Origin: Nitrospirota bacterium
Lineage (GTDB): Bacteria; Nitrospirota; Thermodesulfovibrionia; Thermodesulfovibrionales; JdFR-86
Direction: 5' to 3'
NCBI GenBank assembly: GCA_963721805.1
Contig: CAVRJY010000001.1
Location: 768,001-832,000 of the forward strand
DNA: 64,000 nt
The translations under genes and the position numbers were made by a program. Of this stretch, positions 2,527 to 5,633 are shown piece by piece. Numbering within the stretch: the first letter of the stretch is position 1; every line of letters starts with the position of its first letter. A model generated the notes under the pieces. That model saw nothing but the letters and a program-made list of their open reading frames with translations. It was not told the DNA's origin and did not search any database.

Positions 2527-4233
2527 TTACGGGTGCGTCAGGCGCGGCAGCGTGACCCTGAACTCCGTGCCGCCCTCGCCGAGCACTTCAATCTCGCCGT
2601 CCATCTGAGTGGCGAGTGACCTTACGAGCGACATCCCGAGCGAGTCGGTCTTGCTTATATTGAAGTCCGGGCGTATCCCGGCCCCGTTGTCCTTCACGCC
2701 AAGCCTCCAGACGCCGTCACCGGCCTCGCGCAGGTATACCTCGATCAGCCCTGAGCGCCCTTCCGGGAAGGCGTACTTTATGGCGTTCGTCACGAGTTCG
2801 TTTATGATAAGCCCGCAGTAGTTCGCGGTGTCGACGTCCAGTGAGATCTCCGGCACGCTGGTCACGATCCTTATGTCCGGGTTTTCTAGCCTGTAGGTGC
2901 TCAGTATCTGGTCCGTGAGCCTTTGGGCAAACTCAGAGAAATCTATCCTCGATCCCTCGGGGGATTTCTGTAGCCGCTCGTGGATCATGCCCATAGCCGC
3001 CACGCGGGAGCGGCATTCGTTCAGGAGCTGCTTGGCGTCCTCGTCCTCGGTGCCGTGCGACTGGAGTTTCAGCAGGCTGGTTATCACGTTTAGGTTGTTC
3101 TTGGCCCGGTGGTTGATCTCCTGCGTGAGGATCTCCTTTTCCCTGAGCAGCTGCTCGAGCCGCAGCTCCTGGAGCTTCCGGTCCGTGATGTCCCTCATCA
3201 CGACGAGCTTGGCGAACCCGCCGTCGGGTTTCACGATCCTGATCTGGTGGCTCTCGAAGTATTTGTTCAGGTGAGCCATGTGCCGCTCCATGATCACGTT
3301 GCTGCCGCTGAAGACCTCCGCGTTGCGGCACCAGGGGCAGGGGGCGTCAAGCTTGTGCTGGTAAGCGTAGCACTTCGTGCCGCGCGCGCAGGGGCCGAAG
3401 AGCTTTTCACACGATTTGTTCGCGAACTCTATCTCGAAGTCCTGGTTGGTGATGTTTACGGCGTCGAGCATCGAGTCGTATATGAGCTTGAAGTGCTGGA
3501 ACCCTTCATCAGTCTTAAGCAGGGAATTGAGCTTGTTCTGGAGCGTCTTAAATTCCGTGATGTCGTCGCCGATGAGCACGAAGCCGCCGTCGCCCCCGGC
3601 GGGGATCAGGCTGACCTTCCACCAGGCGTGGTAATCGTTGCGGATGCGGACGGCCTCCATGGTGCGTTCCTCGCCCTGAAGCACGCGCTTCATCTCGGCC
3701 TCGGCCAGCTCCCGGAACTCATCATGCCAGATGTCCTGAAACCGGCTCCCGAGGATCTCGTCCCCGGCCCCCATCTTCTTGAGGCCTTCCCTGTTGATCG
3801 TCAGGCATGTACCATGCCTGTCAAAGGTCATCGCTCATATCGGGGCGAAATTCTCGATTATCCGGTTGCCGAGGCCCTCGTCCGTGGCGCGCCGGGGCTC
3901 CCTGGCCTCTTTCGCTATATGGATGAGGGCGGTCATGTCGCCCTTCTGGTCGAACTGGGGGATCGCCCTTAGCTGTATGAACTTCCCGACCTTCGGCTCG
4001 AAGTACTCGTGAGCTATCTCCTTCTTCGTCTGCCAGCAGCCGCAGCTCAGGCAAAACTCGGGAGGGGCGTTGAGGCCGTGATAGTGGCTGTAGCATTTTC
4101 CGGCCCTCTGGGGGTCGATCGCGAAGAAGGCCTCGGCCGCCTTGTTGGCGTACAGGACGTTAAAGTCCCTGTCGTGGACCGTGATGGAGTCCGTCAGGGA
4201 AAGGAAGGTGTCTAAGAGATTAACTTTTCCCAT
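2527..4233 (-). CDS. Three-PAS sensor histidine kinase (HisKA_2-type, EINHRAKNN) with a single in-frame TGA at 3837-3835; 568 aa if read through
   Basis: ORFs 3835..4233 and 2527..3831 are in one frame, separated only by TGA-GCG. The junction IIENFAPI*AMTFDRHG reads as a continuous PAS N-terminus. HATPase boxes ELVTNAIKYAF, DNGAG, SLGMSLV. Confidence 0.85.
3802..3820 (-). other. Candidate bacterial SECIS-like hairpin
   Basis: Minus strand CAGGCATG-GTA-CATGCCTG: perfect 8-bp stem beginning 14 nt after the in-frame TGA, loop starts with G. Confidence 0.4.
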
Positions 4234-4519: not shown

Positions 4520-5633
4520 ATGTGCAGACTAGCGGCCATAACGTCAAGTAAGTATTTCTCACCGATCGAGAACGTCATCGCGCTTGAGACGATGAAAGAG
4601 GGCCATGACGGCTCGGGCATGGGCCTTGCGCTTCAGGACCTCGGGGGCGAGTTCCGCGAGCTAAAGAGCTACCCCGTGCTCTCCGGCATATGCTCGGACG
4701 AGGGCATGCAGGCCCTCAACGCGTACATGGGCAAGCAAGGGTTCAAGGAGGTCCACTCCTGGAGCCCGAAGCTCAGGCCCGTAAAGGGCATCACGCCGCG
4801 CGACCAGTACTTCGCCAAGTTCTACAAGCTCCCGGCCGCCTACAAGGGCAAGTCGAAAGAGGAGCAGGAAGAGTTGCTCGTGCGCACGCGCCTGGCGCTT
4901 CGCATACTCGGCGAGCAGCGACGAGTCCATAGTCGTTTTCTCGTTCTACCCCGACGTGCTCATATTAAAGGAAGTCGGCGACCCGCTGGAACTTGCCGAG
5001 TTCTTCAGCCTCGACAACTCCAGCCTCAAGGCCAGGGTGATACTCGCGCAGGGCAGGCAGAACACGAACTACGCGATCAACCTCTACGCCTGCCATCCGT
5101 TCTTCCTCCAGGGTTTCTGCTCGATGACGAACGGCGAGAACACCGCGTTCATCCCCATCCGCGAGTACCTGCAAAGCCGCTGCGTGCCCGGCTATGTCGG
5201 CTATAACAGCGACAGCGAGGTCTTCACGCACATCCTGCACTACGCGGTCAACGTGCTCGGATTCCCGCTGACGTACTATAAGGACATCATCACCCCCATG
5301 ACGCAGGCCGAGATCGCAAATAGGCCGGACGCCCAGGCGCTCACGCTCCTCAAGCAGAGCCTCCGCATGCTGACCATCGACGGGCCGAACTGCAACATAG
5401 GCTTCCTGCCGGACGGAACGTGCTACATGGTGCAGGACGCCAAGAAGCTCCGCCCCGGCGCGGTGGGCGGCATCGCGGGCGAGAAGTTCGCGCTGATGAG
5501 CGAGGAGTGCGGCGTGGAGAAGGCCGTGCCCGGCCGCGACAAGGGCCTCGACATATTCCCGATGAAATACGACATGGTAATCATAGCCCCAGGGGCGAAG
5601 GAGGTCAGGGTATGGAATCAGCTCAAAGGTTAG
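4520..5633 (+). CDS. Class II glutamine amidotransferase subunit of a split glutamate synthase; +1 frameshift near 4919
   Basis: N-terminal Met-Cys (Ntn nucleophile), GHDGSG; continues in the second frame as ..DESIVVFSFYPDVLILKEVGDP..GRQNTN..CHPF..NGE..SDSEV. Confidence 0.85.

Follow-up and report, generated by a model that had tools for sequence, protein, structure and literature searches.

The DNA analysed here is a stretch of 64,000 nucleotides from a Nitrospirota bacterium (the window), and the minus strand of its positions 2527-4233 very probably holds one gene for a cytoplasmic histidine kinase with several PAS domains, in which codon 133, a UGA, is decoded as selenocysteine (Sec). Judged by sequence comparison, the residue would belong to a family of PAS domains, not described in the literature searched, with Cys or Sec at one and the same position. 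The original prediction, made from the letters of the window, had proposed a Sec-containing PAS kinase as a candidate, and the proposal is now supported by the sel genes of the genome, by a PAS column at which relatives have either Cys or TGA, and by a hairpin that is kept in the TGA genes.

Two minus-strand open reading frames (ORFs), 3835-4233 (132 aa) and 2527-3831 (434 aa), share one frame, and between them the minus strand reads TGA (3837-3835), GCG and ATG (3831-3829). The sequence and the ORF list agree with the original prediction that the TGA is the sole separator of the two. The junction is ...GNRIIENFAPI-TGA-AMTFDRHGTCLTIN, and translation through the TGA gives a product of 568 residues with the domain order PAS(Cys-rich) - Sec-PAS - PAS(Cys-rich) - HisKA_2 - HATPase_c. 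The proposal that the junction reads as one PAS N-terminus is borne out by the Pfam PAS model (PF00989, 31 bits), which covers residues 123-225 and runs across the stop at residue 133.

Conservation of the codon and of cysteine at one PAS column

The same break was observed in proteins of other organisms. The ENA proteins P0122 and P0123 (136 aa each) share 86% and 77% identity with the upstream ORF, differ through a 4-residue indel in the linker and both terminate with ...IENFAPI, and the JGI protein P0003 (429 aa), which has 47% identity with the downstream ORF, begins with MTFDRHGACLTVN, that is, with the same MTFDRHG start. Searches of metagenome and genome contigs for the DNA of these three proteins returned only distant PAS loci of 34-37% identity. 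A search with the first 238 residues of the read-through protein found an in-frame TGA in three genomes from three families (G008, G289 and G104), and in all of them, as in the window, it stands five residues ahead of the conserved Asp of strand A-beta.

A profile of the Sec-PAS domains and one Ser relative (A3, 5 rows) was searched against 390 genomes of the class, where 23 of the 150 listed matches contained exactly one TGA and none contained TAA or TAG; a further 37 matches lie beyond those listed. In the corresponding search of 401 genomes sampled from the phylum, the TGA was present in 9 of the 120 listed matches, and TAA or TAG again in none. We examined 27 TGA loci from 25 genomes and 7 families, reaching into another order and another class, and the TGA was at profile column 16 in every one. 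In a maximum-likelihood tree of 49 domains two clades were each supported by 100/100. Clade (i), which includes the window domain, has the motif SP[SNT]-U-[IAV]M-x-F-D-R-Q-G-x-C-L, and clade (ii) has the motif APT-U-[VI]-K-L-[IL]-[AT]-A-D-G-x-L-Q-x-M-N-R-A. The window domain sits on a long branch and its exact placement is unsure; the tree requires at least 5 changes between Sec and Cys, 3 of which are forced by well-supported branches.

The residue found at this column in relatives lacking the TGA is almost always Cys. The 20 best-ranked non-stop matches fetched from the class search all had TGT or TGC at column 16 (G136:C269 was skipped among the best-ranked matches, being at a contig end), two relatives from the phylum search (G482 and G545) had Cys as well, and one close relative (G271:C141) had Ser (TCC). 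The alignment of homologous PAS domains that the original prediction called for thus gives TGA at 27 loci and, in the 23 nearest relatives without it, 22 Cys, one Ser and no Trp. As a background, Cys occupies the column in 32 of 1258 PAS domains (2.5%) of multi-PAS proteins found with A3 and in 1 of 143 PAS domains (0.7%) of kinase homologues; the search of A3 against protein representatives returned only giant multi-PAS proteins, which were used solely for this column frequency. A simple mutation of TGC or TGG to TGA, which the original prediction had named as the main alternative, is excluded by the conservation across these relatives.

The Sec-PAS domain is embedded in quite different proteins. 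It occurs with a membrane dCache-type sensor in G008 and is joined directly to a transmembrane sensor in G104. In G537 it is part of a hybrid kinase that includes a receiver domain, and in G289 of a protein with a non-kinase C-terminus. Therefore, the recoded unit is the PAS domain and not one orthologous gene. In the 596-aa frame of the G289 locus (L055, G289:C10) a Cys-rich tail (ICSSCKKIRDDNGYW...HSICPDC), a putative output module, was observed instead of the kinase.

At the level of DNA, three sequencing runs contain small shares of the stretch (0.15, 0.08 and 0.06); no RNA run is listed as containing it. The codon is spanned by two contigs (X2 record 8 and X3 record 12) that come from relatives and not from the assembly's own reads. 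Of the differences 40 are listed and 116 more lie beyond the listing; not one of those 40 touches 3835-3837 or any other position of 3799-3918.

The hairpin after the codon and the selenocysteine machinery

A perfect hairpin of 8 bp, of the selenocysteine insertion sequence (SECIS) type, lies at 3802-3820 on the minus strand, separated from the UGA by a spacer of 14 nt (3834-3821). Its 5' arm is CAGGCATG (3820-3813), its loop GTA (3812-3810) and its 3' arm CATGCCTG (3809-3802), so that the RNA reads CAGGCAUG-GUA-CAUGCCUG; the loop, led by G and 22 nt from the UGA as the original prediction had described it, falls on a conserved Gly codon. Rfam, which is not expected to model such a hairpin, reported at its gathering threshold one tRNA only in the window.

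The comparison of relatives tied the hairpin to the TGA. All 27 TGA genes have a hairpin in the same register, with at least 5 pairs or with 4+3 pairs around one mismatch. Stems with 6 or more uninterrupted bp, beginning 13-21 nt past the codon, were found in 21 of 23 TGA genes vs 2 of 21 Cys/Ser sequences, the two exceptions among the former being G008 with 5 pairs and G274 with 4+3 pairs flanking a U-U mismatch; four TGA loci added later have 7, 7, 7 and 5 pairs. The mean minimum free energy of the first 60 nt was -17.2 kcal/mol for the TGA genes vs -13.5 kcal/mol for the Cys/Ser sequences (Mann-Whitney p = 8.6e-5, a value that is overstated as the sequences are kin). The absence of the hairpin from homologues had been named beforehand as a finding that would count against Sec; the opposite was observed, as the TGA genes retain the hairpin and most Cys genes lack it.

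The stems themselves differ by clade, CAGGCAG-GGNNN-CUGCCUG in clade (i) and CUGCAGA-CGGGNC-UCUGCAG in clade (ii), but they stand at the same place, offset by one base, with the loop on the conserved Gly codon; the loop types among the TGA genes are GUA, GGNNN and CGGGNC. The peptide AADGTL is encoded by hairpin-forming codons in TGA genes and by codons that form no hairpin in a Cys relative (L106). In clade (i) 98.6% of the cells are paired over 10 rows, and one pair is G-C in 8 rows, A-U in one and U-A in one (this count was made without G137, which is identical to G136, without G134, which has a codon insertion, and without G537, which was fetched later). In clade (ii) 90% are paired over 10 rows and compensatory changes number 0 (here G238a, identical to G237a, and three later-fetched loci were left aside). 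A full stem, CUGCAGA...UCUGCAG, was also observed in a Cys form nested among Sec forms (L118, G482:C38:44100-44870; APS-C-IKLITADGSLQ). By its sequence this stem looks like a fossil SECIS element left after a recent change from Sec to Cys.

The search of the genome for selA, selB, selC and selD, suggested by the original prediction, found all four: selB with 380 bits, selA with 576 bits, selD with 356 bits and the tRNA-Sec gene (selC) with 71 bits, selD itself carrying an in-frame TGA. Both selB and tRNA-Sec are also present in the 5 of 5 other genomes tested (G008, G289, G104, G271 and G264). A scan of the window's genome for in-frame TGA codons with coding signal on both sides gave 145 candidates, in 4 of which a Pfam domain spans the TGA: an AhpC-TSA peroxiredoxin, an FdhA-type molybdopterin enzyme, a redoxin and a [NiFe] hydrogenase large subunit, the domain spanning the TGA in the last being the N-terminal metal-site motif. 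Their hairpins start 12 nt (peroxiredoxin), 11 nt (FdhA), 20 nt (redoxin) and 17 nt (hydrogenase) after the UGA, with a stem of 8 bp and a GGC loop, 8 bp and GUC, 6 bp and GGUCA, and 6 bp and CGUGC, respectively. The window hairpin, with a 14-nt spacer, an 8-bp stem and a GUA loop, conforms to the type seen in these four selenoprotein genes, so the comparison within the genome that the original prediction had asked for revealed one geometry.

In the hydrogenase gene (G000:C1:1235466-1236188, L123) the in-frame TGA lies in the N-terminal RxCGxC-type motif (RICGV-U-TTVH), whereas the usual Sec site of [NiFeSe] enzymes is C-terminal. Four other TGA junctions of the window's genome (G000) with good coding scores, C6:19896, C1:1098547, C1:363207 and C1:983377, were set aside, as their flanks look like ordinary adjacent genes: a TusA-like gene and then PAS, a receiver domain and then another gene, and tandem acyl carrier proteins.

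Competing explanations and a putative sensing mechanism

The conserved TGA, the Cys relatives, the TGA-specific hairpin and the Sec machinery together make a sequencing error, a recent mutation or a plain split into two genes very unlikely. One could argue that the locus has a dual output. When selenium is plentiful, a full-length Sec kinase would be made, and when it is scarce, a fragment with the first PAS domain and a shorter kinase started at the AUG two codons after the UGA, which would amount to a translational selenium gate in clade (i) only. Sec insertion competes with termination, and all the evidence for Sec decoding applies to this scheme as well. In addition, Met stands two codons after the UGA in all 13 of the clade (i) TGA genes (UGA-AUA-AUG in most; e.g. 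the window at 3829-3831, L055, L056 and L114), whereas the 3 Cys relatives of clade (i) read CVALF or CVVLF and have no Met there. This Met could be a re-initiation codon or a part of the recoding context. However, the Ser relative has it too, so that the residue may be structural, and clade (ii) has no such start, the codon after its TGA being mostly GUA, GUU, AUC or AUA. We consider a dual output unlikely.

It is improbable that the UGA is a true stop in a conserved two-gene arrangement, with a 132-residue PAS protein and a kinase made separately, when ribosomes terminate and then re-initiate at the ATG two codons on. The conserved Met of clade (i) speaks for this too, as do the position of the window ATG, 3 nt past the TGA, the gene callers, which yield exactly both products in relatives (P0003, P0122 and P0123), and the break itself, whose place between N-cap helix and A-beta would be plausible as a boundary. 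However, such an arrangement leaves unexplained why the stop is always TGA, why relatives have Cys at the column and why the hairpin is tied to the TGA genes. Clade (ii) mostly lacks a start codon after the TGA, and in G104 and G008 the split would sever the membrane sensor from the kinase. The original prediction had seen no evident ribosome-binding site for the downstream ATG, and indeed no GGAGG-like Shine-Dalgarno site was found 5-13 nt from it; nor do all members have a start codon with a ribosome-binding site at this place.

A conserved UGA with a structure downstream would also fit programmed read-through, in which the hairpin stimulates decoding of the UGA by a standard tRNA (a near-cognate Trp, Cys or Arg one) instead of Sec-tRNA. 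We give this little credence: the alternation of Cys and TGA at one column is a signature of Sec, selB and tRNA-Sec are in all genomes tested, and the hairpin has the geometry of those in known selenoprotein genes of the same genome. A pseudogene, a recent nonsense mutation or an assembly error, to which other apparent frame disruptions in the window (e.g. the overlapping ORFs at 4520-5633) might point, can practically be dismissed, as the break is common to relatives at 86%, 77% and 47% protein identity and to 26 further loci, both halves are still conserved, and the contigs of two relatives bridge the codon with 0 of 40 listed differences on it, 116 more lying beyond the listing.

Several observations weigh against Sec decoding in a thiol- or selenol-based sensor. 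The subfamily has neither a solved structure nor a characterised protein, hence its sensing chemistry is something we infer. Within 91 nt of context, the window hairpin does not stand out (z = -1.2, and 27 of 200 shuffled sequences fold just as well), and therefore the significance rests on the comparative data. There, covariation within the clades is thin, clade (i) having a single compensatory pair and clade (ii) no such pair, and the stems overlap conserved codons (DRQGxCL and AADGxLQ). The A3 profile has Cys at the TGA column in 4 of its 5 rows, so that its ranking slightly favours Cys-bearing matches. Finally, the Met two codons on in all 13 clade (i) TGA genes leaves room for re-initiation.

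If the UGA is decoded as Sec, SelB and tRNA-Sec would act on codon 133, directed by the hairpin 14 nt downstream as a bacterial SECIS element. What would then define the PAS family is a nearly invariant Cys or Sec in the first position of A-beta, immediately behind an N-cap helix that connects the domain with the preceding one. An AlphaFold2 model of the window domain, computed with 49 aligned relatives and with Cys in place of Sec, had a mean pLDDT (predicted local distance difference test) of 90.1 and contained an N-cap helix at residues 2-12 and strand A-beta at residues 16-20 of a five-stranded sheet, Sec being residue 16 of the construct. In the model Sec opens strand A-beta, just behind the N-cap helix. 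We infer a thiol/selenol redox switch at this residue: the selenol (or thiol) would be the sensing group, and its oxidation, its persulfidation or its coordination to a metal or cofactor at the hinge of helix and sheet might alter the packing of the PAS domain and thereby the activity of the kinase. A corollary would be that the full-length kinase is made only when selenium is available.

As a tentative idea, which we hold as a possibility and not as an expectation, the Cys or Sec at the hinge of N-cap helix and A-beta could mark a new class of chalcogen-switch PAS sensors. Their single selenol or thiol would signal to histidine kinases the presence of oxidants or reactive sulfur, or the status of selenium; it might do so by binding a metal or cofactor, or by forming a diselenide or selenylsulfide with its counterpart in the other half of the PAS dimer. 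The UGA would make the full-length Sec form of the sensor depend on selenium supply, and such proteins would be the first selenoproteins that serve signal perception and not catalysis.

Gene layout and comparison with known systems

The sensor histidine kinase gene (2527-4233, minus strand, terminal stop at 2529-2527) was delimited by translation and Pfam. All its parts lie on the minus strand. Residues 1-132 (3838-4233) comprise the first PAS domain (Pfam PAS_4, 4.5e-07), a variable linker and the N-cap helix GNRIIENFAPI, and are followed by the in-frame UGA at residue 133 (3835-3837), the first residue of strand A-beta in the second PAS domain. This second, Sec-PAS domain spans residues 118-238 (3520-3882) and is placed by the alignments, the tree (clade (i)) and the AlphaFold2 model. 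The third PAS domain, with approximate limits at about residues 247-350 (3184-3495), is indicated by a PAS_8 match at 247-298 and by a second PAS_4 stretch. Pfam then places the HisKA_2 dimerisation and phospho-acceptor domain at residues 372-447 (2893-3120) and the HATPase_c catalytic domain at residues 475-564 (2542-2811), an order that is that of a HisKA_2 / HWE-type sensor histidine kinase. For the read-through protein the Pfam values are 9.2e-25 (87 bits) for HisKA_2, 1.5e-12 (48.3 bits) for HATPase_c and 9.4e-22 (77.8 bits) for PAS_4. Its PAS identity is seen both in profiles (PF00989, PF08448 and sensory_box/TIGR00229 with 65.9 bits) and in the AlphaFold topology.

Both flanking PAS domains are rich in Cys and His, the first having the motif C-x4-H...C-x2-C-x-C (within 3838-4233) and the third C-x5-H...C-x2-C (about 3184-3495). 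These motifs may belong to a metal- or cluster-binding type of PAS domain, and as sequence features they fit a redox or metal theme. At E <= 1e-12 the first PAS domain has homologues in 100 of 317 genomes of the order.

The kinase gene is solitary, with a convergent pantoate ligase gene on one side and divergent glutamate-synthase-type genes on the other. Upstream of the latter, on the plus strand at 4520-5633, the ORFs 4520-5206 and 4956-5633 overlap; neither was matched by Pfam when run singly, and the overlap may be a frameshift mentioned in the original prediction. The genome of the window consists of 9 contigs, is 94% complete and has 60% G+C, and the best full-length protein matches of the kinase bear Nitrospirota names.

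To our knowledge, the bacterial selenoproteins known so far are nearly all redox enzymes. A conserved Sec in the PAS sensor of two-component kinases would, if true, extend the use of selenium to signal perception. It also draws attention to one residue, the first in strand A-beta, as critical to the function of a Cys-bearing PAS subfamily that is large and had gone unremarked, and offers a direct handle on what these orphan sensors detect. Gene callers split such genes into two ORFs, as in the fragments P0002, P0003, P0122 and P0123, and the annotation is therefore wrong at these loci in at least 25 genomes.

In the literature searched we found no PAS-domain selenoprotein, and the parts of PMC2702500 and PMC2398784 available to us mention none. 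New selenoprotein candidates predicted in silico from UGA and SECIS in marine Deltaproteobacteria do include 'a histidine kinase' (Kivenson et al., 2021; PMC8318568). It can be compared by this mention only, since the passage concerned gives neither domain nor column nor family. The mechanism of recoding is known, and its placement in a signalling domain is new to the literature searched.

The window locus shares with bacterial Sec genes an in-frame UGA, Cys homologues, a stem-loop 11-20 nt after the UGA whose small apical loop has a G in or close to its first position, and selA, selB, selC and selD in the genome. The prototype of a bacterial selenoprotein gene with a SECIS element inside the ORF that is read by SelB is fdhF of E. 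coli, and Zhang and Gladyshev are said to have set out a consensus model of bacterial SECIS elements in 2005. Contrastingly, the host protein here is a signalling PAS domain in a histidine kinase and not a redox enzyme, and no UxxC, CxxU or similar redox motif surrounds the Sec.

Among solved structures no chain belongs to the Cys/Sec subfamily, the best match being 3LUQ. Generic PAS structures (3LUQ, a 'Sensor protein', 3EWK and the LOV histidine kinase 6PH3) have the same fold, with profile E-values of 1.7e-11 to 1e-7, but 3LUQ has Ala at the Sec column. Of the NCBIfam models, only the generic sensory_box model fits the Sec-PAS domain; a weak match to PpsR/CrtJ, of interest for the redox Cys in its PAS domain, was also seen.

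A likeness in mechanism may be offered by ArcB. Malpica et al. reportedly found in 2004 that Cys180 and Cys241 of its PAS domain are redox-active and that intermolecular disulfides silence the kinase, and in both cases a sensor kinase would use a Cys of its PAS domain as the redox-sensing group. The NCBIfam ArcB model matches residues 6-120 of the G289 Sec-PAS domain to ArcB 157-273 with E = 3.7e-9, at 35 bits vs a cut-off of 838. In this coarse profile mapping, the Sec column lies near ArcB position 167, and not at 180 or 241. ArcB is best taken as a possible analogy of mechanism and not as a sign of membership.

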